This document shows positions 22,321-45,374 of a stretch of 64,000 nt of DNA, in pieces (position 1 is the stretch's first letter; the number at the start of each line of letters is the position of its first letter). The stretch is from Candidatus Kerfeldbacteria bacterium (GTDB lineage: Bacteria > Patescibacteriota > Patescibacteriia > UBA10025 > JAHIVO01). Location: NCBI GenBank assembly GCA_047946875.1, contig CP181398.1:463818-527817 (forward strand). The letters run 5' to 3'. The notes under the pieces were generated by a model. The model did not search any database, was not told the DNA's origin, and saw only the letters and a list, made by a program, of their open reading frames with translations. A program made the position numbers and the translations under genes.

Positions 22321-22336
22321 TTATTTAAGAAAATAT

Positions 22337-28019: not shown

Positions 28020-28310
28020 TTAATACATGAAACATTCTACTGCAATGCTGATTATTAAAACAGCAAAAGCAATAGTTCTTCTTTTTATCGCTTTTTTATG
28101 ATAACACCAGTACATTGCTTGAGTGGATATGACTTCCTCTTTCATAAACTTAGTAGAAGCAGATTTTATTCGCTTCCAAAAGGAATCAATTTCTGATTCT
28201 TTCTGATCTGGTGCTAATTTAACAATAAATGCATTATATGCAAATTTGTTAAATTTATTCACTCTAAATGAAAGAATGAAGAAAATTATTAAACCGACTA
28301 AAAAGTACAT
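28020..28310 (-). CDS. Small hypothetical membrane protein
   Basis: 96 aa with an N-terminal TM helix and a second hydrophobic segment. Confidence 0.35.
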   Translation of the reverse strand: MYFLVGLIIFFILSFRVNKFNKFAYNAFIVKLAPDQKESEIDSFWKRIKSASTKFMKEEVISTQAMYWCYHKKAIKRRTIAFAVLIISIAVECFMY

Positions 28311-28442
28311 ACTACCTCCATATTTTGTTTTTTTATTAACAAATTAGATTAGCATTATTAAACTCCCTTGTCAATAATAAATATATTGCCATCATATCAT
28401 AGTTATAATATACTATAATCATTAATAATTAATATTAAAACA

Positions 28443-28694
28443 ATGACAAACAACAATTCACTTAAAGAAGAATTAAAAGTATCAGGCGACCAGCTTGTAG
28501 CTACAGTAAAAAAACTTGTAAAAGAAGCAAACGTCCGAAGACTTATCATAAAAAATGAAAAAGGTGAGCAACTAATTGTCATACCTGTTTCTGCAGCAAC
28601 TGTTGGTGTAATATTATTACCAGTCTTAGCTGCTCTAGGTGCACTCGCTGCTATGGTAACCAATTGCACTATCGAAGTAGAAAAAATTAAATAA
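28443..28694 (+). CDS. Small hypothetical protein with C-terminal hydrophobic segment (DUF4342-like)
   Basis: 83 aa. ...IVIPVSAATVGVILLPVLAALGALAAMVTNCTIEVEK resembles DUF4342-type small proteins. That comparison is from memory. Confidence 0.35.
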   Translation: MTNNNSLKEELKVSGDQLVATVKKLVKEANVRRLIIKNEKGEQLIVIPVSAATVGVILLPVLAALGALAAMVTNCTIEVEKIK

Positions 28695-28973
28695 TAACAA
28701 TAACCATAGATTGTAAAAGGGGAATCTGTGATTTTATTATTGACAATATTATAATCCTATAGTAAATTATTCGAATACAAGGATATTTAATTTTTTGGAG
28801 GGGCACATGTTTAGACTGTATGTCATGCAAATGTTTTTGAGAATGTACTACAGAATACTGTATGCAAATCAAAATACGACATCAAGTTTTCTCCAAGGAA
28901 AGAGAGGAAAAAACACATTACACAAAGGTGGTAGGCCTGATACGAAAGCCAAAGGAAGAAAGAGGAATTATTA

Positions 28974-29255
28974 ATGCTAATAAAATTTCTAAAATTCTTT
29001 GTCTGGGCGTTAGTACTATTGTCCATAATAGGAACGATCAATATACTAATTACAGGAAAGGGAATTATCACAGGAGAAGAAAAATCCCTGCTTGATAAGA
29101 TTGTCTGTATTATTCTAGATTTAATTCTAATCGGATTGAGTCTAATCCTATCTATCAAAAGATGGCATGAATACTACTATGACTTTGTTACTGACAAGTG
29201 GTGTGATTTCAAGTGGTTCATTGAAGAAAAATTCAACACCCTACGAAAAGGATAA
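28974..29255 (+). CDS. Small hypothetical membrane protein
   Basis: 93 aa with two TM helices. It is preceded by SD AGAGGA, and terminator 29274-29306 follows it. I preferred it over the overlapping ORFs 28862-29095 and 28823-29158. Confidence 0.4.
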   Translation: MLIKFLKFFVWALVLLSIIGTINILITGKGIITGEEKSLLDKIVCIILDLILIGLSLILSIKRWHEYYYDFVTDKWCDFKWFIEEKFNTLRKG

Positions 29256-29273
29256 AAAAAGAATAAAAACTTT

Positions 29274-29306
29274 GGCGCAGATAAATTTAAATCTGCGTCT
29301 TTTTTA
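29274..29306 (+). terminator. Rho-independent terminator
   Basis: GCGCAGATAAATTTAAATCTGCG hairpin followed by TCTTTTTTATTT. Confidence 0.6.
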
Positions 29307-29380
29307 TTTATATATATTTGTAACTTCTTACAAAACAGGGTAAGCTAATACAAAATGTTATTTCACAAAAGGAGGTCAAT

Positions 29381-29707
29381 ATGTATATCGAGACTGTTAT
29401 GCAACCAGAAGCTGCAAATATTATATGCAACAGCGAAGTTACTGTAGTTACATATATAGCAAACGATATGTGTACTGGCATTATTAAATCACAAAGTGAT
29501 AAATCAGAACTTTTGCGAATAGATATCAATGGCGGAACGACTGATGAAATGAACCTCGCTATGACCTCAATACTTAAAACTGTTCACTCACATGTGAATA
29601 GTGGTTCATGGGATGGAGGACCAATCGACATCCGTCTCGATACTGAGACTTCGGTTGCCGATGCACTAAGGCAAAATGGAGTCGTTATCATAAAAGACGA
29701 CATGTAA
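29381..29707 (+). CDS. Hypothetical protein (GC-elevated, island)
   Basis: 108 aa. A strong SD AAGGAGG lies 8 nt upstream, and a terminator follows at 29716-29747. Its GC is higher than that of the core genes. Confidence 0.45.
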   Translation: MYIETVMQPEAANIICNSEVTVVTYIANDMCTGIIKSQSDKSELLRIDINGGTTDEMNLAMTSILKTVHSHVNSGSWDGGPIDIRLDTETSVADALRQNGVVIIKDDM

Positions 29708-29715
29708 TATATATA

Positions 29716-29747
29716 AGTGTAAGGATTAATTCTTTACACTTTTTTAT
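29716..29747 (+). terminator. Rho-independent terminator
   Basis: AGTGTAAGGATTAATTCTTTACACT hairpin followed by a TTTTTTATTT run. Confidence 0.6.
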
Positions 29748-29811
29748 TTGATATTTCAAACTATTACTAAAAAGACAAATTCTTATCTTTGAACTTTCAA
29801 ATACAAACCAA

Positions 29812-29843
29812 TAAAAAAGAGGCGACTCAGGTGAGTGCCTCTT
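29812..29843 (-). terminator. Rho-independent terminator downstream of 29854-30381
   Basis: AGAGGCGACTCAGGTGAGTGCCTCT hairpin preceded on the plus strand by AAAAAA, which is a U-run on the minus strand. Confidence 0.55.
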
Positions 29844-29853
29844 GATAGAAAAA

Positions 29854-30381
29854 CTATTTTCCTACTATAGATGAAAGACCATATACAGCCCAAATTGGCA
29901 GATCACCCTTGAAATGAATCTTTACACTGAGGTTGCTTAACTCTGGCATACGAGCGAACTCTTTGATAACAAAGCCAAGTTTATTAACATAAGCTTCGCC
30001 ATTATCACATTCCCAATGTTGAGAGCCAGACAACTCAATAACTTGACATATATCATCACCGCGATCGGTAATATTACATTCAAACTGAGCGCCGCCCCAT
30101 TTAAAACATAGATCCAGCACCATAGAAAAAAACTTTTTATTTTCTTTTTCTTCTTGAATCAACAACAAGTAAGGTTCTTTGTCTGGGCTGGTCAATATAT
30201 GAACTATTGAATAGCTACAACTATCATATTCAAACTGAACCTCGACCGGTCCCATCATCCAAGCAGGGATACTCAATTCATCATATTCTGCTGAGGTGAC
30301 TGTAATCTCGTCTATAGCAAATACTGTACTTGCCAACAACAAGGTTAAAACAAACGCAAATGCAATTTTCAATGCCTTCAT
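29854..30381 (-). CDS. Secreted hypothetical protein (signal peptide, Cys-containing)
   Basis: 175 aa. The N-terminus MKALKIAFAFVLTLLLASTVFA is a cleavable signal peptide, followed by an acidic Cys-containing domain. Its GC is higher than that of the core genes. Confidence 0.5.
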   Translation of the reverse strand: MKALKIAFAFVLTLLLASTVFAIDEITVTSAEYDELSIPAWMMGPVEVQFEYDSCSYSIVHILTSPDKEPYLLLIQEEKENKKFFSMVLDLCFKWGGAQFECNITDRGDDICQVIELSGSQHWECDNGEAYVNKLGFVIKEFARMPELSNLSVKIHFKGDLPIWAVYGLSSIVGK

Positions 30382-30583
30382 GAATTCCTCCTTAACCTTA
30401 AAAACCTTAAGGAAATTTATATTAGTCTTTCGTTATGTAATGTGCATCTATAATTAACTTAACAAGTATTAATAACATATAAAGAGGGTAGTGTCAATGG
30501 TTGAATATATAATTTGACAATATATTGAAGACAGCCTAAGATTTGTATGAATGAGTTGAACTTTCAAAAAATATGGAGGCACG

Positions 30584-30937
30584 ATGACTATAATAAAATT
30601 TCTGATTATGGTTGGAATTTTTTACCTAGTTATGCAATTAGAGGGAATCGCTGATGACTATATTGAGTCATTTAACCTACCAGGATGGGTTAAGTTAATA
30701 CTAGGCTCAGGAGTCCTATATTTCTTTTTTCTGACCGATCATGTTGATGACTTTATCACTAAATATCTAAATCACTTCATTTTAGAAGAAACATGCGTAG
30801 CTCAGAATCAAGTGAATAAATTGATATTATCTTACCAAAAAAAATATGCTTTATTGGCCCTAGATAAAAAATCTAGTTTCAAAAACATTGTAAGATATAA
30901 TCTTCTGGACATGAAGCAAATACTTTCAAAAACATAA
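30584..30937 (+). CDS. Hypothetical membrane protein
   Basis: 117 aa. SD GGAGG lies upstream, two TM helices are present, and a terminator follows at 30936-30969. Confidence 0.45.
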   Translation: MTIIKFLIMVGIFYLVMQLEGIADDYIESFNLPGWVKLILGSGVLYFFFLTDHVDDFITKYLNHFILEETCVAQNQVNKLILSYQKKYALLALDKKSSFKNIVRYNLLDMKQILSKT

Positions 30938-30969
30938 CAGACTTTTAATAATAGAAGTCTGTTTTTTTA
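30936..30969 (+). terminator. Rho-independent terminator
   Basis: CAGACTTTTAATAATAGAAGTCTG followed by TTTTTTT. Confidence 0.65.
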
Positions 30970-31035
30970 TTAAATAAAAAATACACCCATGACTAAATAA
31001 ATATCACAGGTGTAAACTTTTGATCCAAGATCATA

Positions 31036-31368
31036 CTACCAAGTAGTATCGATTTGAGAAGCAGTAGGTAGTCTCTCAATAGTCAACTCGAATCCTTGCG
31101 AAGCCAACTCCGTTCTGAGGTTTTTAATGACCTCCGGTGTTTCTCCACAATACCCATCGACCGTTGCTACTCCGTTTTCCCATTTGGTTGCATTCAGGCC
31201 CATTGTTTCGAGAATACTCACAACCATTGATTGACATGCAAAAAATGATGGTATGGGTACTCCCTTAGAATTATCGATAATGATACCGACTTCAAATTTG
31301 CCTGAAGGCAATTCGGAATTGAGGATATCAACCTCATTTAATTCCTTAAGAACAATTACGTTTGACAT
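31036..31368 (-). CDS. Hypothetical protein
   Basis: 110-aa ORF with island-like composition. I recognised no motif. Confidence 0.4.
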   Translation of the reverse strand: MSNVIVLKELNEVDILNSELPSGKFEVGIIIDNSKGVPIPSFFACQSMVVSILETMGLNATKWENGVATVDGYCGETPEVIKNLRTELASQGFELTIERLPTASQIDTTW

Positions 31369-31478
31369 ACTAGCTCCATAACAGAATAGGATTATGTAAA
31401 TGATTCTTGGTTCTATGTTAAGAGTGCAAACAATATAGACTAGCAGGAGGGTTATACATTGTCAAGGTCTAACGAGTT

Positions 31479-31511
31479 AAAAAAAACCTCCTGATATATA
31501 TACCAGGAGGG
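31479..31511 (-). terminator. Rho-independent terminator downstream of 31540-31923
   Basis: CCTCCTGATATATATACCAGGAGG has a 7-bp stem. It is preceded on the plus strand by AAAAAAA, which is a U-run on the minus strand. Confidence 0.6.
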
Positions 31512-31539
31512 GATTCTTAATCACTTAAATGGATCTTTA

Positions 31540-31923
31540 TCAATTTTCACGAATAGCTACTTTAACTAGTTTTTCTTCATCATCAGTCAAATTCCTGATG
31601 AATCCATCTGGGCCATATAAGCCAGCTAAATAGGGATGTGAGTCATAAAGAATATTTCGCCCTGAATTTAAAAAAGTACTTTCAGCAAAACATTCAGCTA
31701 TCCACTCAGTATCATAAGTCCAAAGTAATCTGCAATTTAGTGTTTGGCTGTAGATGATCCTTTTTGTTCTCATGTTATAAACAAAAAATTGGTGCTCATC
31801 ACTATAACCAGTCCAAACAACTTTAATATCATCGTATTCCGATTGACCATTAATGAAATATCCGTCTGTAAAACTAGCTAATGTTTTTTCAAAATCATTT
31901 TCAAAAACTTCTGGCATTATCAA
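31540..31923 (-). CDS. Hypothetical protein
   Basis: 127-aa ORF, acidic and aromatic-rich. I recognised no motif. Confidence 0.4.
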   Translation of the reverse strand: MIMPEVFENDFEKTLASFTDGYFINGQSEYDDIKVVWTGYSDEHQFFVYNMRTKRIIYSQTLNCRLLWTYDTEWIAECFAESTFLNSGRNILYDSHPYLAGLYGPDGFIRNLTDDEEKLVKVAIREN

Positions 31924-32108
31924 CTCCTATTTTTATAAAGATCTAATTAAATAATCTTATTACAACGGTTAAGAGTAGTCAAATACGTCTTGACCCTCAA
32001 AAAGGCCTATGTTATGATATATATATAACTGCGTATAATAACTCTTACACTCAGTTATATACATAGGTAAATACCCTATTAACTATATGTATATATCCTT
32101 TACCGCTT

Positions 32109-32152
32109 GTCATTCCGGGCTTGTCTGTCCGCCTCAGGAGGAATCCGGAATC
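32109..32152. repeat. GC-rich hairpin repeat (left copy; inverted partner at 34265-34289)
   Basis: GTCATTCCGGGCTTG[tctgtccgcctcaggagga]ATCCGGAATC. Apart from the 19-nt insertion it is the reverse complement of GATTCCGGATCAAGCCCGGAATGAC at 34265-34289. It contains the ATTCCGG/CCGGAAT palindrome. Confidence 0.6.
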
Positions 32153-32187
32153 TCTGATATAATTAAAACGTTAACTAACTTCCAAAT

Positions 32188-33126
32188 ATGTCACTACCTT
32201 ACATAGATGATTATCTATTAAACCTCCAAACTAATAACTACTCTGAAAAGACCGTTTACAACTACGAACGCGATTTAAAGGTGTTTGAGGAATACTTGGA
32301 TAAAGAGTCAAAGAAGCAGTTTAACACGCTTAAAAGGCGCGATATTGAGCTCTACAAGGCCTATTTGGTGTCTAGGGATCGAAATACTGCCAAGGGTGAG
32401 AAAAGCCTTAAAAAGCTAAATGCTTACTCCATGAATAGGATGTTATCTGCCTTACGCTCGTACTTGAAGTATATGATAGATAATGATTATAAATGTCCTG
32501 TTAACCCTCAAATGATCCGTTTATCGAAGACTACTAAGAAGCATCCTCAAGTTGCAGAATTAGAAGATATTGTTAGGTTGATAGAGTCCCCATCAAAATA
32601 CGAGAAAGCCAAACACATAGCTCTTCGTAACCGCGCCATGATGGAAGTATTATTCGCAACTGGCATGAGAATCTCAGAACTGATAAACTTGAATAAGAAT
32701 CAGATAGATGCAACTGGAAAAATATTTATCGAAGGTAAAGGACGCAAGCAACGTTTCGTTTATATGACAGAGAGAGCAAAACTTCATACAGAAAAATATT
32801 TAAACTCTAGAGGAGATAATCACCCTGCTTTATTCATCCCCTACCGTGGGTCTAATGCCGGTTCTATAAATTCGCGCATATCGCCTAATTACTTACAAAT
32901 GAAGATAAAACAGTACCGAGAGCGTTTAAAAATTAATGTTCCAACCTCAGCCCATAGCTTACGTCACGGGTTCGCTACATACTTAGCTGAGTCAGGCGCC
33001 AACCCCGCCGCGATCCAAATACTCCTAGGTCACGAATCACTAGATACTACTACAAGATATGTAAATGCCTCAGATAAATTCGCCGAAAAATCTCACCGGA
33101 AATTCCACCCCCTAAAAAACAAATAA
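32188..33126 (+). CDS. Tyrosine site-specific recombinase, XerC/XerD family
   Basis: 312 aa. The C-terminal catalytic region ...SAHSLRHGFATYLAESGANPAAIQILLGHESLDTTTRYVNAS supplies the R...H..R..Y residues. An N-terminal SAM-like domain is present. Its GC is higher than that of the core genes. Confidence 0.85.
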   Translation: MSLPYIDDYLLNLQTNNYSEKTVYNYERDLKVFEEYLDKESKKQFNTLKRRDIELYKAYLVSRDRNTAKGEKSLKKLNAYSMNRMLSALRSYLKYMIDNDYKCPVNPQMIRLSKTTKKHPQVAELEDIVRLIESPSKYEKAKHIALRNRAMMEVLFATGMRISELINLNKNQIDATGKIFIEGKGRKQRFVYMTERAKLHTEKYLNSRGDNHPALFIPYRGSNAGSINSRISPNYLQMKIKQYRERLKINVPTSAHSLRHGFATYLAESGANPAAIQILLGHESLDTTTRYVNASDKFAEKSHRKFHPLKNK

Positions 33127-33250
33127 CACACTCTTGTCACTCTGAGCTTATGCGAAGAGTCCCCTGACCGCAGGTCAGGAGATACTTCACTTCGTTCAGT
33201 ATGACAATCTAAAATTTCATCCACTTAAAGATAAATAATATATCAATCAT

Positions 33251-33421
33251 ATGAATGAATATAATCCAATAAAACATGAAAAAGAAATCAAAAAAACACA
33301 AAAAAAGAATTCACCCTTTAAAAACGTTATTATTATTCTAATCATTATCGGACTTTTATGTTTCTTACCTTTAATGTTTTATTTTGTTATGTTTTTTCGT
33401 CCAGATAAGATCTTTGGTTAA
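33251..33421 (+). CDS. Small membrane protein (56 aa), not in ORF track
   Basis: ATG at 33251 opens MNEYNPIKHEKEIKKTQKKNSPFKNVIIILIIIGLLCFLPLMFYFVMFFRPDKIFG. The stop is TAA at 33419-33421. It is preceded by the repeat CCACTTAAAGATAAATAA at 33221-33238. Confidence 0.3.
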   Translation: MNEYNPIKHEKEIKKTQKKNSPFKNVIIILIIIGLLCFLPLMFYFVMFFRPDKIFG

Positions 33422-33519
33422 TTTGATTTCTTATTAAGTATTCTCAAAAAAATAATCATGCATTAAAAGAACTTCGCAAAAAATTTCACCCACTTAAAGA
33501 TAAATAATTAATTTACCAG

Positions 33520-33561
33520 CCGTAACTTCATGCGAAGGCTGGACCACTTAAAGATAAATAA
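33520..33561 (+). repeat. 42-nt direct repeat copy 1 (CCGTAACTTCATGCGAAGGCTGGACCACTTAAAGATAAATAA)
   Basis: It is nearly identical to 34178-34219. It ends 1 nt before the ATG at 33563. The 18-nt core CCACTTAAAGATAAATAA also occurs at 33221-33238 and 33490-33507. Confidence 0.65.
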
Positions 33562-33562
33562 T

Positions 33563-34084
33563 ATGAAAAAAATTAATGACAAAAGTATTCTAATAATTGA
33601 AATCTTTTTCATGTCTCTTGGTACTTTTTTTATTATTTCCTCCTTATTTATCCCAAAACTTTTTTCCTGGTTAACCATAAATTATCAATTTGAAGCACCC
33701 CATTTAGTTATTCTCATCATCGGGCTTGCGGGGGTAGGTTTTGCCTGGTATCACAACATTAGAACAACTAATTTTAAAAGGCAGGATCATCCTAAGCAAA
33801 TTAGTTCTATTACACAAAGCTTTGTTAATATTGGTATTACTACAGGAAATATTTTACTGGGATATTTACTTGGTATCTTAGTTACCTACGTCATTAGTAT
33901 TTCAATAACTGAAACTCAACGAATAGTGTTTGGAATAGGTATAATGATGATTTATACTTCCTTATTAGGAATATTTGCAAAAAAAGATAAACAAAAGTTT
34001 TTAATAATGGTTTTAATAACATTAATGATTGCATGGCTTCTATCTATCGTATCTGGTTTATTGGACAATGCAATAAATAATTAA
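33563..34084 (+). CDS. Hypothetical polytopic membrane protein
   Basis: MKKINDKSILIIEIFFMSLGTFFII... has four or more TM helices. I chose the start at 33563 rather than the track start at 33530, because 33530 lies inside the direct repeat. Confidence 0.45.
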   Translation: MKKINDKSILIIEIFFMSLGTFFIISSLFIPKLFSWLTINYQFEAPHLVILIIGLAGVGFAWYHNIRTTNFKRQDHPKQISSITQSFVNIGITTGNILLGYLLGILVTYVISISITETQRIVFGIGIMMIYTSLLGIFAKKDKQKFLIMVLITLMIAWLLSIVSGLLDNAINN

Positions 34085-34177
34085 ATTCTTTTATGCCTCA
34101 GACAGGTTCGCTGAGAAGTCCCATCATAAATATCACCCTCTAAGCAAAAAAGAATAATTAACTAACAACTTTATCCG

Positions 34178-34219
34178 CCGTAGCTTTATGCGAAGGCTGA
34201 ACCACTTAAAGATAAATAA
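34178..34219 (+). repeat. 42-nt direct repeat copy 2
   Basis: CCGTAGCTTTATGCGAAGGCTGAACCACTTAAAGATAAATAA. Together with the copy at 33520-33561 it brackets the membrane-protein gene. Confidence 0.65.
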
Positions 34220-34227
34220 CTTTATAA

Positions 34228-34299
34228 AACATCCCTCATCCTGAACTTGATTAAGGATCCCCGAGATTCCGGATCAAGCCCGGAATGACAAACTAATAA
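34228..34299 (+). repeat. ~75-nt dispersed element, intact copy (AACATCCCTCATCC ... hairpin ... GAATGACAAACTAATAA)
   Basis: It contains the inverted hairpin copy at 34265-34289 and ends 1 nt before the ATG at 34301. Degenerate copies lie at 38524-38611 and 40194-40208. Confidence 0.55.
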
Positions 34300-34300
34300 T

Positions 34301-35152
34301 ATGAATGAAAACAAGCAAAAAATTATTGAACGATACTACCAATATTCCACACCATATTTATTGAAATACTGGTCTGATAAGGAAAGTATGAGTATTCATT
34401 ATGGTTTTTGGTACCCAGAAACAAAATCGCGTAGCGAAGCATTCTTAAACCAACACCGCTCAGTAGTCGAACTACTACAACCTTCGGCTGATGATTATAT
34501 CCTAGATATAGGTTGTGGAGTCGGCGGCGTTTCTACATGGCTCGCACAGCATACACCAGCACGCTACGTCGGTATCACTCTCGCTGACAACCAAATCCGT
34601 ATGGCCCGACAATTAGCCCAACGTCGAAAAGTGGCAGACCGTACAGCATACAGCCGTATGGATTTTTTTAAAACATCTTTCAATGATAATACCTTTACTA
34701 AGGCATTTGCTATTGAGAGTATTTGTCACTCTTATCCACGCCAACTTGAAGTATTTCGAGAAATGTACCGTATCCTTAAGAAGGGAGCAACTTTACTTAT
34801 TTCTGATTCTGCCCTTTTTCGGCAAGCAACCGGAAAGCAAGAATTAAAATGGGTAAAAAATTTCTGTAACGGCTGGGCCATGACTGATTATAGTACTATT
34901 AATGACATTGTAATTTCTTTAAAAAAGGCGCAATTTAAAAATATACGAATCATCGACCGAACAAAGCTTGTCTCACGTAATATTAATCAAATTTATTGGA
35001 TCGGCATCTGGTCATATCCATTGTTAAAAATCAAGCAACTACTTGGCCATCTTCCAAAAATAGTATTAGGTAACAACCTGGCCGCAGTTACCCAAAAGAA
35101 GTTAGTTAATGCCGATCTGGCCGGATATTTTTCAATTATTGCTCACAAATAA
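34301..35152 (+). CDS. Class I SAM-dependent methyltransferase
   Basis: The glycine-rich SAM motif ILDIGCGVGGVS is present, as is the downstream acidic residue typical of the Rossmann MT fold. It is 283 aa. Its GC is higher than that of the core genes. Confidence 0.7.
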   Translation: MNENKQKIIERYYQYSTPYLLKYWSDKESMSIHYGFWYPETKSRSEAFLNQHRSVVELLQPSADDYILDIGCGVGGVSTWLAQHTPARYVGITLADNQIRMARQLAQRRKVADRTAYSRMDFFKTSFNDNTFTKAFAIESICHSYPRQLEVFREMYRILKKGATLLISDSALFRQATGKQELKWVKNFCNGWAMTDYSTINDIVISLKKAQFKNIRIIDRTKLVSRNINQIYWIGIWSYPLLKIKQLLGHLPKIVLGNNLAAVTQKKLVNADLAGYFSIIAHK

Positions 35153-35155
35153 AAT

Positions 35156-37862: not shown

Positions 37863-37874
37863 TATATTACCAAA

Positions 37875-38519: not shown

Positions 38520-38523
38520 ACTC

Positions 38524-38611
38524 AACATAATCCTCTACCGTCCCTTGTTACTCTAATTCTAACAGCATAAAGGCTGGAATCTAGAACAATTCAAGAATGA
38601 CAAACTAATAA
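38524..38611 (+). repeat. Degenerate copy of the dispersed element (AACATAATCCTCTAC ... GAATGACAAACTAATAA)
   Basis: It shares its 5' 15-mer with 40194-40208 and its 3' 17-mer with 34283-34299. It lies upstream of an unrelated methyltransferase gene. Confidence 0.5.
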
Positions 38612-38625
38612 ATAATTATTTATTT

Positions 38626-39372
38626 ATGAAACTAAAAGAAACATTTAGTACAATTCCATTACAGTATGACAAAGTACGACCTGATTATCCCCCTACCCTT
38701 TTTCAGGATATTTTAAATTACAGTCAATTGAGTAAAAGTGATCCCATTTTGGAAATTGGTATTGGTACTGGTAAGGCCACGCTACCATTCGCCAAACATG
38801 GTAATCCTATTATAGCGAATGATATCAGCCGAGAATTAATTGGCGTAGCTAAAAATAAACTTAAAAATTACAAAAAAATTAAATATGTTGTCGGACAATT
38901 TGAAAAAATAATATTACAAAAAAATAAATTTGGACTTATATACTCCGCACAAACTTTTCATTGGATTAAGCCAAATATACAATTTACAAAAACCCACTCA
39001 TTACTCAGGCAAGATGGTGTGTTAGCTCTTTTTTGGAATCTAAATTATTATGATCAAGGTATCGGCAAGTGGGCTCTTAAACTCAATAAAAAATATTCTT
39101 CAGCAAAAAAAGGTAAAACACGATCTATTATACAACAATTTAAACGACACCGTCTTTTTAAAGATGCAATTATAAAAGAATACCGCCGTGAAATAGGAAT
39201 GAGCAAAATTAACTATATTAAAATGCAAACATCACATTCTTGGTACCTAGTACTATCAGATAAACGAAAACAGCTTGCTATGATTGATTTACAAAAAGCT
39301 CTTATTCATTACCCAAAAATCATAAAAATGCCAATAAAAACGATATTAGTAATGGCTAAAAAAAATAAATAA
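38626..39372 (+). CDS. Class I SAM-dependent methyltransferase
   Basis: ILEIGIGTGKATLPFA SAM-binding motif. It is 248 aa. Confidence 0.65.
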   Translation: MKLKETFSTIPLQYDKVRPDYPPTLFQDILNYSQLSKSDPILEIGIGTGKATLPFAKHGNPIIANDISRELIGVAKNKLKNYKKIKYVVGQFEKIILQKNKFGLIYSAQTFHWIKPNIQFTKTHSLLRQDGVLALFWNLNYYDQGIGKWALKLNKKYSSAKKGKTRSIIQQFKRHRLFKDAIIKEYRREIGMSKINYIKMQTSHSWYLVLSDKRKQLAMIDLQKALIHYPKIIKMPIKTILVMAKKNK

Positions 39373-39382
39373 TCCACTTAAC

Positions 39383-40177
39383 ATGGAAGATCTAACAACA
39401 CTATCTCAAAAATTTCGCTTTTCATATTTTTCCAGTAAGTACTGGCTTGAGTCTGTTTGTAAAATAGAAGAAAGAAATAATGAATCCCTGGCATTAATTG
39501 AAAGTCTTGATGAAAAAGGAAAATGGATATTACAGTATACCCCCGAAAAAACTGAAAATCTTTATGGTGCAGAGATTTTATGGGCAACACAATCAGAATT
39601 GGATCGTATTACTGACCAAGAGATTAGTATAATAAAAAATGAGAAATCCATGCAAGAATATTTTTTCAAAACTAGCGATCTTATTTCCCTAGATGGTAGT
39701 GCCAATAAACAGAAACGTAGGGACATTCGATTATTTGAAAAAAAATATTCGTTTAAATTAGTACATACATACGACAAACAAAAAACCATTGCCTTTCTCA
39801 AAGATTGGGATCAAAAACAAGAAATTAAGACAGCTCCATACAAACGTGGTTTAAACTTTTGCTATTACCTACTTGATTACATCGACTCAGATGATAATTT
39901 ACGAGCTAATTATGTATTAATAGATAATAATCTCGTTGGTTTTTCTATCGGTGAAAAACTGACCAAAGACCATTGGATTGGATTGCACCAAAAAACTGAT
40001 TATAAGTATTTAGGTATTGGTAGATGGATGATCCGAGAACGAGCCAAATTATTTGTCGATGTGCAAATGATAGCGTCAGGTGGATCTATGGCTGACAAAG
40101 GAATCGCCCAATTCAAAGAAAGTTTTAACCCAACAAAAATTGAACAATATTACCACGTAATATTAAATAAGAAATAA
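39383..40177 (+). CDS. Hypothetical protein (possible GNAT-like fold)
   Basis: 264 aa. I recognised no strong motif. It lies 10 nt after the MT gene. Confidence 0.3.
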   Translation: MEDLTTLSQKFRFSYFSSKYWLESVCKIEERNNESLALIESLDEKGKWILQYTPEKTENLYGAEILWATQSELDRITDQEISIIKNEKSMQEYFFKTSDLISLDGSANKQKRRDIRLFEKKYSFKLVHTYDKQKTIAFLKDWDQKQEIKTAPYKRGLNFCYYLLDYIDSDDNLRANYVLIDNNLVGFSIGEKLTKDHWIGLHQKTDYKYLGIGRWMIRERAKLFVDVQMIASGGSMADKGIAQFKESFNPTKIEQYYHVILNKK

Positions 40178-40193
40178 TATAACTAATCAACTT

Positions 40194-40208
40194 AACATAA
40201 TCCTCTAC
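40194..40208 (+). repeat. 5' 15-mer of the dispersed element (AACATAATCCTCTAC)
   Basis: It matches 38524-38538 exactly. It lies 10 nt upstream of the ATG at 40219. Confidence 0.45.
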
Positions 40209-40218
40209 TCATAACTTA

Positions 40219-41031
40219 ATGAATAAAGAAAATTTTCCAAATATAAAAGAACTATTCAAAAATTTTGAAGGGCGTAAAAAAATGCTACGTGGTATTAAAC
40301 GTTATAATATCCGTCCAGTGATGTTTTACCGACCAGATCTTTATACTCACTCATTACACTTAGGATTAATCCTGCATGACTTAGCGGATAATATTAACCA
40401 AGTTTTTGGAGACAAAGTAGATATTGAGAAAACTATCTTGATGGGACTTATCCATGATGATCTAGAATTAGTCATGGGTGATATACAAGCTGCGCACAAA
40501 GCAAGGATGACACCAGAGCAGACCGCAGAGCTCCTAGAAACAGAATCAAAAGCTATCACCGAGATAAGTCAGAAGTTCCCGAAGAAAATTGGAAACTATA
40601 ATTATGAATCATTGTTACGTGAAGGGAATGATAGAAAAACAATAGAAGCAAGATTAATGCATTTTGCTGACCAGTTGGACGGTTTATGTGAATCTCTTCA
40701 TGAAGTTTATGGAGGCAACAAAAAATTTGAGCTAAATATTGTCACGGATGGATACGGAGCACATCCATCTCCAACAAGATTCTATGTACAGATAATATCA
40801 GATTTTAGTAAAAATTATCCAGAGATTCAACCTTTGTTTGAAACAAAACATCCTTTTCTCACTCCCCTACCAACTATTAATTTTAAGAAAACCGTTTTGA
40901 AAAACAAACCACACACCAAACAATCCATACTAAATAATGTTGGATATACACTCTACGATCACTGGAGAAAAATCATACGTGAATATGCAGATGAAAAGTT
41001 ATACAGTAATTTATATTTAAAACAAGAATAA
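40219..41031 (+). CDS. HD-domain phosphohydrolase, YfbR/HD_3-like (paralog of 35156-36313)
   Basis: H...HD motif (HSLHLGLILHDLAD...MGLIHDDLELVMGDI). It shares the GL(F/I)HD(L/D).E..(T/M).DI block with the other HD protein. Confidence 0.5.
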   Translation: MNKENFPNIKELFKNFEGRKKMLRGIKRYNIRPVMFYRPDLYTHSLHLGLILHDLADNINQVFGDKVDIEKTILMGLIHDDLELVMGDIQAAHKARMTPEQTAELLETESKAITEISQKFPKKIGNYNYESLLREGNDRKTIEARLMHFADQLDGLCESLHEVYGGNKKFELNIVTDGYGAHPSPTRFYVQIISDFSKNYPEIQPLFETKHPFLTPLPTINFKKTVLKNKPHTKQSILNNVGYTLYDHWRKIIREYADEKLYSNLYLKQE

Positions 41032-41032
41032 T

Positions 41033-42151
41033 ATGAAAAAAATAATAATTATAGTAATTATTTCTTTATTAGTAATAGGAGCTTGCGCTTGGTATTTAAT
41101 TACAGATAAAGAAGATGGTAATAACTGGGAAATATCAGAAAATGAAACATTCGAGACATCAATAATTGCAAACGATCGGTTTGGTTTTTTAGTCGGTTCA
41201 TCGGCTAAAGAGATGGAATTAGCCCGAGAAACTGGCGCTGGTTGGATTCGACCTCATCCTGGTCCGTTTGTCTGGGGAGAGATGCAAGAAAATGCTTCAA
41301 GTGAAATAGATTTCTCAAACACTGATAACATGATCAAATCCAGTGCTACTTATGATATTAATATCCTTCCTACCATCTGGCACTACGCTGAATGGGATCA
41401 GCAAGATAATCCAAACTCTAACGAATGTATAGCTTCAACTAGTGAATTCAAAAGAGAATTTGGTGAGTATCGTTGTGTTCCATATCATTGGAAGGAATAC
41501 CTAGGATGGGTTTCGATGATCGTAGAACGATATGATGGTGATGGACTTGGTGATATGCCAGGTTTAAAAAAACCAATTACTCACTGGGAGATAATGAATG
41601 AACCAGACTTAGGTACCCCAGACAGTAGTCCTGGTCTGCAATTTTTAATTGGAGAACCTTCCGATTATGCTGAACTTCTGAAAAGGACAAGTAGTGCTAT
41701 CCGAACTTCCGATCCAAATGCTACTATTCTAATAGCTGGTGCTGCTGGCGGTGATGAATCTTTTTTAAATTATTTCAGAGAAGTATTTTCAGATAAAGAA
41801 ACGCTAGATACATTTGATATCGCTAATGTACATTGTATTTCAAATGGAGATGTTGATTCATTTAATACAGTTCCCTATGCAGCAATGCTAGCTGAGTTTA
41901 ATATCAATAAACCAATCTGGGTCACTGAAGCCGAAGCATTTCAAAAAGATTCTTTTGAACAAAGAAAATATACATTAGATGAGCAACTATTAGTTAGTAG
42001 TATAAATGCTTTCGCTTCCGGAGCTGAAAAAATATTTTTTACATCAATGAACTTAGATCATATACCTGGTGGTGATAATAATAAACCCTCCAAAAAAGAT
42101 GGACCTCAAGCATCAACTGAAGTTTATCAAAAAATATTCAATAATTTTTAA
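41033..42151 (+). CDS. Membrane-anchored glycoside hydrolase, clan GH-A (GH5-like)
   Basis: N-terminal TM helix. WEIMNEPD carries the acid/base Glu in an NEP motif, and IWVTEAEA carries the nucleophile Glu in a TE motif. This is the (beta/alpha)8 clan A pattern. Confidence 0.45.
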   Translation: MKKIIIIVIISLLVIGACAWYLITDKEDGNNWEISENETFETSIIANDRFGFLVGSSAKEMELARETGAGWIRPHPGPFVWGEMQENASSEIDFSNTDNMIKSSATYDINILPTIWHYAEWDQQDNPNSNECIASTSEFKREFGEYRCVPYHWKEYLGWVSMIVERYDGDGLGDMPGLKKPITHWEIMNEPDLGTPDSSPGLQFLIGEPSDYAELLKRTSSAIRTSDPNATILIAGAAGGDESFLNYFREVFSDKETLDTFDIANVHCISNGDVDSFNTVPYAAMLAEFNINKPIWVTEAEAFQKDSFEQRKYTLDEQLLVSSINAFASGAEKIFFTSMNLDHIPGGDNNKPSKKDGPQASTEVYQKIFNNF

Positions 42152-42405
42152 TTTAATTGTATAAAAAATACATAATTAAAAATGAAGATGTTAGAAAAAT
42201 ATCAAGAATAAAATAACTCCCTGAATATATAAATATACCCAGAGAGCTTCGCATTACGGATGATAATAAAGATCTATTATAAAGCCCTGAAAAGCAGGGA
42301 CGTAATAAAGTATATATTACTAAATCGTAAGTTAATTATAATATAAAATCTTTGAAACTAAAAGTAGCATTCGTAGAAGATACCTTAAATCATTAGAAAA
42401 ATAAT

Positions 42406-43041
42406 ATGAACACAAAACATTGGGACCAACTACATGACAACTATACCAAAGTTGATTGGATTGACACACCAACAGAATTCTCACAGTGGGTCATTAAACA
42501 TTTATCACCCAATGGAAAGCTACTAGATATTGGTGGTGGACAAGGCCAAGACTCACGCTTCTTTGCTGACAAAGGATATAACGTAACACTATTAGATATA
42601 TCACCACGTGGATTGGAACTAGCTAAAGAAAAAACTTCAAAAAAATTACAAAAAAATCTTTCTTTTTACCAACATGATATTAGTAAATTACTTCCCTTTT
42701 CTGATAGTTCTTTTGACTTTGTATATACACATTTAGCCATTCACTACTTCAATAAAAAAACAACAAAACAAATTTTTGATGAGATGTATCGAATATTAAA
42801 AAAAGATGGGATAATCGCGATTTTCACTAATTCAATAAATGACCCGGAATATAATACAGGGGTAAAAATCGAAAAAGATTTTTTCGAGATTAGTGGAGTT
42901 AGAAAGAGATACTTTTCTATAGAAACTATGATAGAATTTACTAAGGGATTTGATACTATTGCTATTGATGAAAAAGGCAGTACCCCTAAAGACCGCGCAG
43001 TAAATACAAATAATTTAATTCGTTATATAGGAAAAAAATAA
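42406..43041 (+). CDS. Class I SAM-dependent methyltransferase
   Basis: LLDIGGGQGQDSRFFA motif. It is 211 aa. Confidence 0.7.
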   Translation: MNTKHWDQLHDNYTKVDWIDTPTEFSQWVIKHLSPNGKLLDIGGGQGQDSRFFADKGYNVTLLDISPRGLELAKEKTSKKLQKNLSFYQHDISKLLPFSDSSFDFVYTHLAIHYFNKKTTKQIFDEMYRILKKDGIIAIFTNSINDPEYNTGVKIEKDFFEISGVRKRYFSIETMIEFTKGFDTIAIDEKGSTPKDRAVNTNNLIRYIGKK

Positions 43042-43074
43042 TATGTCCAAATTATTAACAATTAACAAATAAAT

Positions 43075-43335
43075 ATGCCTACTATAGACGAACTACAAAA
43101 CCAAATAAACGAAATCAAAGAACGTAATAAGAAAGTCGAAGCTGATAAAACTTGGGAAACAAGCTGGATAAGAAAAATAATTGTGTTTATACTCACCTAC
43201 TTAGTAATTGTAGTATTCTTCTTAATCTCAGAGTTACCTAGTCCATTTATCAATGCGATAGTGCCTGCTCTGGCTTTTGTAATATCTACTCTTACACTCT
43301 CACTATTTAAGAAGATATGGTTAAAAAATAATTAA
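43075..43335 (+). CDS. Small membrane protein
   Basis: 86 aa with an N-terminal coiled segment and two TM helices. Confidence 0.35.
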   Translation: MPTIDELQNQINEIKERNKKVEADKTWETSWIRKIIVFILTYLVIVVFFLISELPSPFINAIVPALAFVISTLTLSLFKKIWLKNN

Positions 43336-43719
43336 ATGGATCTTTTAGAATTTGAAGATACAATTAAACAAGCTGTAGAAGCAGTACCTACTGAAATAAG
43401 AAAAAATATGGTTAATATAGGTTTTGTAGTAGAAGATGATCCGCGAGCAGCTAAGAATACAGAACATGCTATAAAATCTAATGGTGTTTTACTTGGTCTT
43501 TACCAAGGAGTTCCTCTTCCTAAACGTAGTGCTTATTATAGTGGCGCTTTACCAGATAAAATAACTATATTCAAAAATTCTATTGAAAGAATATTTGGAC
43601 CTGATACAGAAAGTATAAAAAGAAAAATATTTGATGTAGTACATCATGAAATTGGTCATTATCTTGGAATGGATGAACATACGGTAAGAAAATGGGAAAA
43701 AAATAGGAATAATAAATAA
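43336..43719 (+). CDS. Zincin-like mini metallopeptidase (HExxH)
   Basis: HHEIGHYLGMDE is a C-terminal HExxH motif in a ~127-aa protein. This resembles the small zincin-like families. Confidence 0.45.
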   Translation: MDLLEFEDTIKQAVEAVPTEIRKNMVNIGFVVEDDPRAAKNTEHAIKSNGVLLGLYQGVPLPKRSAYYSGALPDKITIFKNSIERIFGPDTESIKRKIFDVVHHEIGHYLGMDEHTVRKWEKNRNNK

Positions 43720-43730
43720 ACATTATATTT

Positions 43731-44195
43731 ATGAAAATACAAAAAGCAACTGAATCAGATAAAGATGGAGTTTTAAAAATCCTTGACGAATTCAGGGACG
43801 CCTGTATGAAAATAATATCACCAGAAAAAGAATTTATTTCAACTACCGCCAAAAATCATGGCAGTAAAGTCTTTGATAATATTATTGACTCTCCATATTC
43901 AGCAATATTTATTGCTAAAGAAAAAAATGAGTACCAAGGCATAATTACCATTCATAAAGTACCGCGTCTCAGACGAGGAACCTACTATGCCGAAATAGAA
44001 GAAATATTTGTAAAAGATGAATTTCAAGGTACTGAAATAGCACAAAAATTAATAGAAGCCACTGAAAAATGGTCAAAAGAAAACAATATCGAAGTTATAC
44101 ATTTAAAAAGTGGCATTGAATTAAAACGAGCTCATTCTTTTTACAAAAAAGTAGGCTTCAGACATTATGCTGAGGGCTACGAAAAAATCCTTTAA
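43731..44195 (+). CDS. GNAT family N-acetyltransferase
   Basis: The acetyl-CoA binding region VKDEFQGTEIAQKLIEATEKW (Q/RxxGxG/A-like) is present. It is 154 aa. Confidence 0.65.
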   Translation: MKIQKATESDKDGVLKILDEFRDACMKIISPEKEFISTTAKNHGSKVFDNIIDSPYSAIFIAKEKNEYQGIITIHKVPRLRRGTYYAEIEEIFVKDEFQGTEIAQKLIEATEKWSKENNIEVIHLKSGIELKRAHSFYKKVGFRHYAEGYEKIL

Positions 44196-44200
44196 TACTT

Positions 44201-44503
44201 ATGTCTTCAAATCAATTTAAATTACAATCTAAAGTTTGGCAATCGCCAGGTAAGGATATTTGGCACTTCGTATCTCTGCCAAAAAAACAATCAAAAGATA
44301 TTATGATCTTTTTTCAAGGCTTAACTCGTGGTTTCGGTTCATTACCAGTTAATGTAACAGTTGGTAGAACAAAATGGAAAACGTCAATTTTTCCCGATAA
44401 GAAAAACGGTATGTATATTCTTCCACTTAAAAAAGAAGTAAGAAATAATGAAAATATTCAAAATGGTGATACAATTAACTTATTAGTTAAAATACTTATT
44501 TAA
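44201..44503 (+). CDS. DUF1905-like protein
   Basis: ...LPVNVTVGRTKWKTSIFPDKKNGMYILPLKKEVR resembles the DUF1905 core as I recall it. Confidence 0.4.
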   Translation: MSSNQFKLQSKVWQSPGKDIWHFVSLPKKQSKDIMIFFQGLTRGFGSLPVNVTVGRTKWKTSIFPDKKNGMYILPLKKEVRNNENIQNGDTINLLVKILI

Positions 44504-44539
44504 TATAGATTATAACCATAACGACAAACAAATAATACT

Positions 44540-44953
44540 ATGCCATTAGGAGAAGTAACCAAAACAGAAGATTCTAACAAAACTAGCTCTAAGACAAAGC
44601 GTCATCTTTTTTTTAAAAAAATAAAAAAGATATTTTGGCTTATAATCATTCTCATTATAATTATTCAAGGATACCTAATAGCAACCAATTTTTTTAGTAA
44701 ACAACCTAACTTAAAAATGTGTTATGACAGATTTACTTGTGTTGGATATTGTGGAGTAGATTCTCAAAAAGAATGTTACAGTCTTGTGAGCGATGAAGAT
44801 TATAAAAAAGAATATAACTTCGGACAACTAATCAAAGGCAAGATAAACATTATCGAATTTTTCAACAAAAATACCAAATACTGTTATTGTGATTATTCCT
44901 CAGACTTAAGTGACCATGAAGAATTATACAATTTTTACAAGAAAAACAACTAA
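44540..44953 (+). CDS. Membrane-anchored Cys-rich hypothetical protein
   Basis: 137 aa. A basic N-terminus and one TM helix are followed by a Cys/Tyr-rich extracytoplasmic domain. Confidence 0.35.
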   Translation: MPLGEVTKTEDSNKTSSKTKRHLFFKKIKKIFWLIIILIIIIQGYLIATNFFSKQPNLKMCYDRFTCVGYCGVDSQKECYSLVSDEDYKKEYNFGQLIKGKINIIEFFNKNTKYCYCDYSSDLSDHEELYNFYKKNN

Positions 44954-45165
44954 TTTGACTTACTTTCTCAATTTGCTATACTTTAATTGTCCCAAATAAA
45001 AGAGTATGCGGGACAGAAGGACATTTAGTTATTAACATGACTAACCCATAAGTGGATGCTTAGGATGCATTATTCCTAGTTTTAATGCTTTAATCCTAGT
45101 ACTATTATTTCAACTACGTAGTTTTCTACTTTTTGCACGATGTACTTATAGCATCACATATGGAA

Positions 45166-45207
45166 GCCCTGGATAGATTTATAAATATTATCCAGGGTGT
45201 TTTTTTT
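45166..45207 (+). terminator. Rho-independent terminator at the right edge of the island
   Basis: CCCTGGATA...TATCCAGGG forms a 9-bp stem. It is followed by GTTTTTTTT. Confidence 0.6.
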
Positions 45208-45374
45208 AAAAAATTTGTAATTAATGATAGTATTATAAAATATACTACTTTAAAAATATATAGTGTACAAAAAAACAAGGAGTCTTTGAGTGGAGAAAAC
45301 TCAAAATAAAACAAAAGTTAGTAAATCTAAATTCATTTACTATCCCGGCTAGATATTAATACGTATTTTCGGCT

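Follow-up and report, generated by a model that had tools for sequence, protein, structure and literature searches.

The dif-xer module and the replication terminus

In this study, a 64-kb window of DNA from a Candidatus Kerfeldbacteria genome (Patescibacteria; the window being the whole stretch that was analysed, with a GC content of about 30%) was examined around positions 28300-45210, a stretch between the genes hup and rlmN that the original prediction had presented as one acquired, compositionally distinct 17-kb island. This flagged stretch lies at the replication terminus, and it holds a conserved module formed by a promoter, a dif-like site and xer, a gene encoding a tyrosine recombinase. 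Related metagenomic loci, numbered with an L (e.g., L086), were used as relatives for comparison. The features of the module and of the lineage-conserved right flank are as follows:

31990-32018, + strand: sigma-70-like promoter from the promoter scan (TTGACC, 17 nt, TATGAT, with TG), 5' of the dif-like site and xer
32028-32055, + strand: dif-like site, ACTGCGTATAA-TAACTC-TTACACTCAGT, 28 bp, 11-6-11 architecture, in the xer leader
32107-32160, no strand assigned: palindromic repeat element between dif and xer, with the 17-nt end TTGTCATTCCGGGCTTG
32188-33126, + strand: xer, tyrosine recombinase of the XerC/D/A type (312 aa), conserved and the anchor of the locus
46743-48035: M23 peptidase gene, with gltX the lineage-conserved right flank
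48075-49499: gltX, with M23 the lineage-conserved right flank

The xer protein matched PF00589 (Phage_integrase, E=8e-33) together with PF02899 (SAM-like N-domain), and the catalytic residues R, K, HxxR, H and Y are legible in its translation in ATGMR, GKGRK, HSLRH, LLGH and TRY. Scores against the NCBIfam models were 198 bits for XerC, 185 for XerD, 175 for XerA and 90 for XerS; the XerC, XerD and XerA scores lie below the equivalog cut-offs, which is expected for a distant phylum. The integron integrase models were far from reached (TIGR02249, 81 bits vs a cut-off of 265, in a split match; NF011946, 44 vs 435). The closest solved structures were P. abyssi XerA (4a8e) and E. coli XerD (1a0p), with E of about 1e-23. 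Moreover, a metagenome scan recovered 80 loci that encode the protein at 62-88% identity.

The dif-like site was found through nucleotide conservation upstream of xer in the relatives. A conserved non-coding block directly upstream of the gene holds both the site and the promoter, the latter being kept at the nucleotide level in six relatives. The two 11-bp arms are inverted and agree at 9 of 11 positions, the 6-bp spacer is asymmetric, and the site precedes the xer start by 133 nt. It is present as a single copy in the window, where 0 copies are expected by chance; no second copy and no half-site at the boundaries was found, and the next-best full matches carry at least 6 mismatches in 22 positions and are located elsewhere. 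In 68 of the 80 related loci, a dif-like site lies 13-630 nt upstream of xer, and positions 4, 6, 7, 9, 11, 18, 20, 23, 25 and 28 are invariant across the 55 sites collected. The canonical XerCD dif pattern (ATAA-N6-TTATGTNAA) was also tried and gave chance-level matches only. Sites with an 11-6-11 architecture have been described previously (PMC5357621; see also PMC2958812 for dif architecture).

The spacer had the same polarity with respect to the M23-gltX arm in 32 of the 35 loci where M23 or gltX is visible, and it stays linked to the arm even in a sub-clade with an inverted xer. The loci with xer inverted and on the M23-gltX side of dif are L119, L121-L124, L131, L136, L147, L150, L152, L154 and L156. 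Since xer is inverted while dif keeps its arm polarity, the gene has flipped around the site in the course of evolution. The site is thus tied to the chromosome arms and not to the gene, which is the behaviour expected of a functional dif. By sequence comparison, 32028-32055 and xer are predicted to constitute a conserved single-module chromosome-dimer-resolution system of promoter, dif and xer.

The position of the module agrees with the organization of the window. Genes to the left of about 27.5 kb are nearly all on the + strand and those to the right of 45.3 kb nearly all on the - strand, and because gene orientations flip, the flagged stretch is the meeting point of two converging gene blocks. 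The cumulative GC skew peaks at 26-30 kb, declines slowly and flattens to 45 kb and falls steeply thereafter. At third codon positions, the skew of the + strand was +0.225 in the left core and -0.454 in the right core; it was still +0.18 in the minus-strand genes at the far left, which indicated that the skew tracks the DNA strand and not the gene. The sign change falls between 27.5 and 34.3 kb, an interval that includes the dif-like site, and as the third-codon skew flips sign at dif-xer, the terminus is placed there. On the coding strand, the GC skew was 0.03 in the genes of the flagged stretch and 0.21 in the rest (p=3e-8). The genes at 34.3-45 kb show a + strand third-codon skew of -0.20 to -0.24, which is the sign of the right replichore (-0.195±0.04 for the block at 36802-44953). 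Their near-zero bulk skew arises because they run head-on to replication, and a foreign origin is not required.

Composition and gene content of the terminus zone

The bulk GC content differed modestly between 28300-45210 (32.3%) and the rest of the window (29.7%). The GC content at third codon positions (GC3) per gene was raised in the flagged stretch taken as a whole (0.263 vs 0.193 for the rest; Mann-Whitney p=2e-6), and the genes named in the original prediction as having 38-42% GC were measured at 0.388 (29381-29707), 0.377 (29854-30381), 0.390 (32188-33126) and 0.384 (34301-35152), which bears out the claim; the gene at 31036-31368 reached 0.408. However, when GC3 was split by sub-block, only 28.97-36.3 kb was found to be atypical. 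The mean GC3 was 0.320 for the genes at 28974-36313 (p=3e-6 vs the core, 0.19), whereas the mean of 0.228 for the genes at 36310-44953 did not differ from that of the right-hand core (0.214; p=0.22). Clearly atypical composition is restricted to about 7.4 kb. Strong Shine-Dalgarno (SD) sites and private hairpin terminators, which had been attributed to the genes of the entire island, were found only for those at 28.0-32.0 kb; the genes at 34.3-45 kb lack both and resemble core genes. Over the whole flagged stretch, neither SD strength (p=0.85) nor downstream hairpin energy (p=0.39) differed significantly from the core, and the terminator scan observed 12 sites vs 9.3 expected. The hairpin terminator with a T-run that had been noted at 45166-45207 is present.

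The remaining features of the zone and its borders, from left to right, are as follows:

27528-27809, - strand: hup, HU-type DNA-binding protein (PF00216, E=8e-25), conserved left flank
28020-28310, - strand: small membrane open reading frame (ORF) in the slot between hup and the DUF4342 gene, with its own GGAGG SD site and its own terminator
28443-28694, + strand: DUF4342 gene (PF14242, E=2e-23), conserved and syntenic
28700-31950, both strands: ORFan slot, seven small genes directly left of dif (28807-28974, 28974-29255, 29381-29707, 29854-30381 on the - strand, 30584-30937, 31036-31368 on the - strand and 31540-31917 on the - strand)
34301-36759, + strand: trio of MT1 (methyltransferase, 283 aa), HD1 (YfbR-like HD protein, 385 aa) and a 149-aa protein
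36802-44953, + strand: co-directional accessory block with a transmembrane (TM) protein, idi, HAD, MT2, LPG_synthase_C-like, HD2, GH (glycoside hydrolase) and, in the rest of the block, MT3, tm43075, Zincin_1, GNAT, DUF1905 and a TM protein
45375-46376, - strand: rlmN, first gene of the right convergent core (Pfam; coding skew 0.27)

The tyrosine recombinase at 32188-33126, the LPG_synthase_C-like protein at 39383-40177 and the DUF4342 gene at 28443-28694 had been missed by the original prediction. The proposed boundaries, hup and rlmN, held only in part: the DUF4342 gene and xer are conserved, syntenic genes inside them, and the DUF4342 gene, being conserved and syntenic, is not part of an island.

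The left-hand slots carry the most distinctive genes. The ORF at 28020-28310 has an SD match of 6 nt and a downstream hairpin of -16 kcal/mol, matched no Pfam family and had no counterpart in the relatives. In the ORFan slot, the six genes at 28974-31917 have a GC3 of 0.29-0.38, except for the ORF at 31540 with 0.23; five of these six have an SD match of 4-8 nt, and hairpins of -12 to -17 kcal/mol follow each of them. The SD scan returned 0 for the ORF at 31540-31917, yet on reading the sequence AGGAG is found 7 nt before the ATG at 31917, and GGAGG precedes the ATG of the ORF at 28807-28974. The ORFan-slot genes gave no Pfam, PHROGs or PADLOC matches and were absent from the relatives compared, and the ORF at 29854-30381 matched itself alone among 5.8 billion proteins. 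The distance from the DUF4342 gene to dif is about 450 nt in L088 vs 3.3 kb of ORFans in the window. The segment at 28.7-31.95 kb is the most foreign-looking one of the stretch. PHROGs and PADLOC searches with the ORFans, the 149-aa protein, HD1, HD2 and others gave nothing beyond a single marginal PHROGs match (E=0.009), a megablast of the flagged stretch against phage genomes gave no match, and viral-contig scans with xer and the ORF at 29854-30381 found no relatives. By these searches, the flagged stretch does not appear phage-like.

On the right, MT1, HD1 and the 149-aa gene are separated by a gap of 3 nt and an overlap of 4 nt, respectively, and judged by this spacing they probably form one transcription and translation unit; GC3 is still raised in MT1 (0.33) and HD1 (0.30). 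The block at 36802-44953 lacks SD sites and is transcribed head-on to right-replichore replication. All 17 ORFs at 33251-44953 are co-oriented with xer, and most of them have neither SD sites nor promoters. As for the gene content that had been listed for the island, three class I methyltransferases, two HD/YfbR-like proteins, a type 1 Idi (NF002995, 220 bits vs a cut-off of 127), HAD, GNAT, Zincin_1 and DUF1905 were recovered, and the clan-A glycoside hydrolase stood only as a weak Glyco_hydro_cc match. However, HD1 and HD2 are not close paralogues (BLASTP E=0.054). The protein tm43075 has 86 aa, and the protein at 44540-44953 was not on record in an exact-protein look-up.

The comparison with relatives showed a stable frame around changing content. 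Many loci keep the left genes 22806, 24056 and 25477, then dif-xer and then the convergent M23-gltX; the close clade, taken as the loci with 77-88% identity in xer (L084, L086, L087, L088, L104, L108, L164 and L165), additionally keeps 26790, hup and DUF4342 to the left of dif-xer. In L086, L087, L088, L108 and L164, hup is 73-86% identical and syntenic, and between it and xer stands the DUF4342 gene, with 70-78% identity. M23 and gltX adjoin xer in many relatives, whereas rlmN does not; a genome-collection scan with RlmN returned Patescibacteria-type relatives only (best 58-60% identity) and no useful synteny. The genes in the interval from xer to M23 differ between the relatives and span anything from 0 to more than 10 kb; in L090, no gene separates xer from the M23 peptidase gene. 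The description of the stretch as accessory and variable is upheld by these data: the relatives keep the flanks and not the content, and L090 does without the intervening genes altogether.

Clustering of the ORFs downstream of xer in nine clade genomes gave 17 shared families whose order varies and is partly collinear, including methyltransferases, inositol monophosphatase, tm43075, HAD, HD1, HD2 and GNAT. The order HAD, HD2, tm43075, tm44540 is common to the window and L086. Homologues (30-81% identity) of HAD, MT2, HD2, MT3, tm43075, GNAT and tm44540 lie downstream of xer in relatives, and a search with HD1 independently reached the xer-downstream arrays of L164 and L165 (59-62% identity), of which the former holds HD1, MT2, HAD and tm43075 and the latter MT3-HD1. 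The 149-aa ORF, tm36802, idi, the LPG_synthase_C-like protein, GH, zincin and DUF1905 had no counterpart in the xer-downstream arrays of eight relatives. On this basis, about half of the genes at 34.3-45 kb belong to a clade-level pool linked to xer. Moreover, each genome has its own set of one to four ORFs directly after xer, and most of these encode small multi-TM proteins.

Stranded xer tails and the proposed build-up of the zone

Downstream of xer, the following partial copies of its 3' end and small ORFs were found:

33211-33239, + strand: remnant 1 of the xer 3' end, encoding KFHPLKDK-stop (repeat family D1; six-frame motif search and tail alignment)
33251-33421, + strand: mini-cassette A, 56-aa ORF with one predicted TM helix, between remnants 1 and 2
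33480-33508, + strand: remnant 2 of the xer 3' end, …LRKKFHPLKDK-stop, then a hairpin at 33516-33542
33544-33562, + strand: remnant 3, short, CCACTTAAAGATAAATAAT, abutting the ATG of mini-cassette B
33563-34084, + strand: mini-cassette B, 173-aa ORF with about five predicted TM helices
34093-34154, + strand: remnant 4, long, 3' end of a different xer allele, …ASDRFAEKSHHKYHPLSKKE-stop, then a hairpin at 34175-34199
34202-34220, + strand: remnant 5, short, CCACTTAAAGATAAATAAC

The 18-mer CCACTTAAAGATAAATAA downstream of the xer stop has four exact copies vs 0.46 expected, and two of these extend to encode KFHPLKDK-stop. The [FY]HPL tail motif is found in three of the remnants in the window, and the two shorter ones are 18-nt repeats. 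Remnant 4 (62 nt, repeat D3) is 73% identical to 33065-33126 (tblastn E=6e-6). Both of the bracketed ORFs (56 and 173 aa) are hydrophobic, and that of mini-cassette B had no family matches. Remnants also follow xer in L084 (four), L087 (two), L088 (one), L104 (two, one of more than 100 nt) and L165 (one), whereas none was found in any relative with xer identity of 70% or less. The remnants range from 19 to more than 100 nt in length and vary among themselves and against the resident tail mainly at synonymous positions; these synonymous differences and differing lengths suggested that they are leftovers of different xer alleles and not copies of a DNA-level site. On reading the sequences, the long remnant of L104 has 4 mismatches in 45 nt against the xer tail of L108 and 7 in 45 against its own. 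We read the xer-tail remnants as probable traces of insertion or replacement events that recurred at the 3' end of xer.

No other gene in the window has a GC3 as high as that of xer, 0.41. Within the clade, the GC3 of xer was observed to exceed that of every neighbour in the window (0.41 vs 0.19), L086 (0.54 vs 0.33) and L088 (0.46 vs 0.30); these three are low-GC genomes with relatives richer in GC, and more distant relatives did not show the excess. A movement of xer alleles between genomes would be consistent with this high GC3. The intergenic spaces around xer were also observed to carry a family of palindromic repeats of the GTCATTCCGGGC… and GTCACTCTGAGC… types (32107-32160, 33137-33205 and 34231-34291), with a decayed copy at 38577-38611, and similar palindromic elements lie between dif and xer in L083, L084 and L087. 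The end TTGTCATTCCGGGCTTG at 32107-32123 has a perfect inverted partner at 34275-34291, and this 17-nt pair, repeat D9, brackets xer and the mini-cassettes.

Taken together, we consider it probable that the flagged stretch is a flexible terminus gene zone, a mosaic around the conserved dif-xer module that gained DNA by insertion beside xer and whose enzymes serve independent functions. The zone is a mosaic of segments of different ages. The slots at 28.0-28.3 and 28.7-31.95 kb look like the newest and most foreign DNA because of their ORFan genes, their own SD sites and terminators and their raised GC3. At 33.1-34.2 kb, the two mini-cassettes for small membrane proteins each lie between left-over 3' ends of earlier xer alleles. 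The 11-kb co-directional block at 34.3-45 kb, with enzymes that modify small molecules, has been resident in the right replichore long enough to take its mutational skew, and, by gene comparison, roughly half of it is shared with sister xer-downstream arrays, with gains, losses and some reshuffling. New DNA would enter beside xer by recombination anchored in the conserved dif-promoter-xer sequence: a donor segment with the 3' part of xer and a downstream gene would replace or extend the resident copy, the other end would join illegitimately or a duplicated dif-xer copy would later be deleted, and the resident xer tail would be left stranded downstream. Repeated rounds would push older genes outward, with the newest lying nearest xer. 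Allele replacement is favoured over a fixed DNA site because of the synonymous differences, the variable lengths and the high GC3 of xer.

Several points weigh against this interpretation. No donor was identified for any segment, the best nucleotide identities being about 75%, and the contigs that carry identical proteins all have the same arrangement, with no strain-level presence/absence variant seen. Transfer need not be what raised the GC3 of xer. The uniqueness of dif, the single Xer and the skew maximum were judged on 64 kb of a genome of roughly 1.3 Mb, and the action of Xer on 32028-32055 is a prediction from sequence. Furthermore, the junction "tail stop, 0-3 nt, ATG" recurs across genomes, which would be easier to obtain by site-specific recombination than by illegitimate joining.

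This last point belongs to another explanation, which we regard as possible but doubtful: the end of xer (…[FY]HPLKxx-stop) would serve as a recombination site for promoterless circular cassettes of an ORF and a tail, inserted by Xer or another recombinase, transcribed by read-through from the xer promoter and displaced outward with age, in the manner of an integron or of integrative mobile elements exploiting Xer (IMEX). In six genomes, those of the window and of five relatives, units with one ORF each lie between direct repeats of the tail, the next ATG lies 0-15 nt past the tail stop, often as TAA-T-ATG, and the array at 33251-44953 with its co-oriented and mostly promoterless ORFs would fit such capture, as would the ORFs unique to each genome nearest xer and shared deeper in; in family F11, a tail-flanked cassette ORF of L084 is homologous to an ORF deep in the array of L164. 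However, the mainly synonymous variation of the tails indicates conservation at the protein and not the DNA level, and the remnants of 19 to more than 100 nt are at odds with a fixed site, as is a tail that has no convincing inverted-arm core and does not resemble the dif site. Between the genes at 34.3-45 kb, many of which are spaced by 0-12 nt, there are neither tail copies nor attC-like elements; the recombinase is no integron integrase, and circular or empty-site variants were not seen. It is unlikely, in our judgement, that the dimer-resolution recombinase doubles as a capture platform for single-gene promoterless cassettes, mostly small membrane proteins, at the xer stop; this wider proposal includes expression from the xer/dif promoter, outward displacement and the whole co-oriented array, all based on Xer and without IntI or attC.

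The absence of any horizontal input appears quite improbable. In that case, fast vertical evolution, mutation and recombination effects of the terminus, lagging-strand orientation and tandem duplications of the xer 3' end would account for the zone. Orientation does explain the bulk skew at 34.3-45 kb, 36.3-45 kb and the right-hand core have equal GC3, gene order is partly conserved with L086 and L164, and a unit of hairpin and short tail is itself duplicated with 82% identity (repeat D2). Nevertheless, the ORFans at 28.7-31.95 kb use strong SD sites in a mostly SD-poor genome and have raised GC3, the long remnant at 34093-34154 shares no more than 73% identity with the resident tail and has mainly codon-level changes, which fit a different allele better than a recent duplication on the spot, the long remnant of L104 is nearer to the tail of L108 than to its own, and different unique ORFs stand beside xer in each genome. 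Even less credible, and already largely refuted, is the original prediction itself, namely one acquired 17-kb island with a coherent pathway, in which methyltransferase, HD, Idi and HAD enzymes would make a methylated or dephosphorylated metabolite derived from an isoprenoid or nucleotide. The raised GC3 of the stretch as a whole, the translational coupling of MT1, HD1 and the 149-aa gene, a methyltransferase directly upstream of the HD1 homologue in L165 and a genuine type 1 Idi speak for it. Its composition, SD use and terminators are heterogeneous, however, and the genes at 34.3-45 kb carry replichore skew and recur downstream of xer in relatives, singly and in differing combinations. The tRNA/tmRNA scan of the window found none, the Rfam gathering-threshold scan of the whole window gave no match, and the repeat search found no attL/attR-like pair flanking 28.3-45.2 kb. 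Its recombinase is the lineage-conserved xer with its own dif. A classical integrase island was considered and rejected, as atypical composition does not run throughout, att repeats and tRNA are lacking, and xer is present in all the relatives, even in L090 without its accessory genes.

The proposed pathway did not find support either. None of the methyltransferases reached a specific family cut-off in the HMM (hidden Markov model) check, and the GPP C-methyltransferase model NF041943 gave 42.7 bits vs a cut-off of 400. The nearest solved relatives of MT1 are generic RebM/MitM/sugar O-methyltransferases; the RebM-like entry 3bus matched with E=4e-18, and PDB entry 3vc1, considered for the GPP C-methyltransferase type, with only 7.5e-5. 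The closest idi homologues (71-74% identity) sit in unrelated neighbourhoods, and idi is common in Patescibacteria. The HD1 family (about 380 aa) also occurs widely in other phyla, and the one example inspected from outside the clade had no methyltransferase next to it; within the clade, the methyltransferase directly upstream of HD1 in L165 is MT3-like and not MT1-like, and none is adjacent in L164. From these comparisons, nothing appears to link MT1-HD1-149aa to idi or HAD.

Relation to known Xer-associated systems

XerS/difSL of streptococci and lactococci is a single-module dimer-resolution system (PMC1914069; reviewed in PMC5357621). As in that system, one recombinase gene has its site directly upstream in one module at the terminus, the neighbourhood varies between species, and the site may lie in the recombinase leader. 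The module in the window differs in its 28-bp 11-6-11 near-palindrome, whereas difSL has 31 bp with an 11-bp centre, and in a protein that scored nearer to XerC/D/A (198, 185 and 175 bits) than to XerS (90); the present assignment is based on sequence. The near-palindromic 11-bp arms and the 6-bp spacer are shared with archaeal XerA/dif and Helicobacter XerH/difH (PMC2958812, PMC5357621), and such arms suggest that a single recombinase may bind both of them. The closest solved structure is likewise archaeal, that of P. abyssi XerA. In the Thermococcales, however, dif is not adjacent to xerA (PMC2958812), whereas here dif adjoins xer and the host is a Patescibacteria bacterium.

IMEX are represented by CTXphi, TLC, VGJ and the gonococcal genetic island (PMC5357621). 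The zone resembles them in its accessory DNA beside dif/xer, in successive tandem additions and in the lack of an integrase in the added elements. IMEX are flanked by dif or dif-like sites, whereas only one dif is found here, with no degenerate boundary copy, and what brackets the cassettes is repeated xer coding tails and not dif. With a single dif and no half-sites at the boundaries, the zone is not an IMEX. Acinetobacter pdif modules are plasmid-borne and bounded by inverted pairs of XerC/D binding sites (PMC11705084, PMC12907356). They share with the cassettes the form of small integrase-less gene modules, which in the case of pdif are thought to move via host Xer; no pairs of XerC/D sites bound the units here.

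Like chromosomal integrons, the locus has a tyrosine recombinase followed by a co-oriented, mostly promoterless array, with recombinase-proximal genes unique to each genome and an order shuffled between relatives. An integron was considered for this combination of recombinase, co-oriented array and hairpins and was ruled out by the IntI and attC tests: unlike integrons, the locus has no IntI signature (TIGR02249, 81 vs 265 bits) and no attC between the genes. Islands that target tRNA or tmRNA genes insert at the 3' end of the gene, restore it and leave displaced 3' remnants. The arrangement in the window is similar in that an intact gene is followed by partial 3'-end copies that delimit successive insertions. 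It differs in that the target is the recombinase gene itself, the remnant lengths vary widely, and the inserts are of 0.05-0.7 kb with at most one ORF and no integrase.

No publication describing a Patescibacteria dif-xer module was found in the literature searched. The module is previously unremarked, whereas single-module Xer systems and dif-adjacent hotspots are already known kinds. It is a clear and testable module covering a large Patescibacteria group: the 28-bp site in the xer leader is conserved in dozens of uncultured lineages and offers a simple terminus marker for fragmentary metagenome-assembled genomes (MAGs), as well as a handle on chromosome segregation in organisms that cannot be cultured. 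The supposed biosynthetic island becomes a plasticity zone of the terminus, and reading its enzymes as a single pathway should be avoided. Moreover, the stranded 3' ends of xer are a rare legible record of the order of DNA addition at one hotspot, and they raise the possibility that Xer, or recombination anchored in xer, is behind the gain of genes in genomes that are otherwise considered poor in mobile elements.

Some additional observations were made in the window and its relatives. Between the last gene of the array and rlmN, 44955-45215 (+ strand) is a candidate structured non-coding RNA. It starts with a promoter-like site at 44955-44982 (TTGACT, 16 nt, TATACT, with TG), followed by about 215 nt without an ORF that end in the hairpin and T-run at 45166-45207, and its minimum free energy is -61.5 kcal/mol vs -41±4.3 for shuffles (z=-4.75). 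An Rfam E-value scan of 44850-45400 gave chance-level matches only, and no similar sequence was found in the fetched loci. In the otherwise tight + strand array, a gap of 254 nt at 42152-42405 contains terminator-like hairpins on the minus strand (42248-42215 and 42299-42285), and it could represent a small antisense unit or what remains of a minus-strand gene that has since been lost.

In the left core, the seryl-tRNA synthetase (SerRS) at 22806-24053 is 61-62% identical to L111/L127 and 32-41% identical to the otherwise closest clade, a pattern that suggests replacement of the gene or a paralogue. A transfer of the whole dif-xer region was considered from this pattern and dropped, as the neighbours (20289-22801, 26790 and hup) agree with xer. 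Two contigs of same-population MAG assemblies break within or near the zone: SWBW01001516.1 ends 106 nt beyond rlmN (about 45269) and SWBX01003578.1 ends inside MT2 (about 39111), which may reflect population heterogeneity or a change of coverage. In L088, the C-terminal half of a 281-aa protein looks, by eye, like the TIR-like nucleotide-binding domains of defence systems; this protein is encoded by the first gene past the stranded xer tail (10739-11584).

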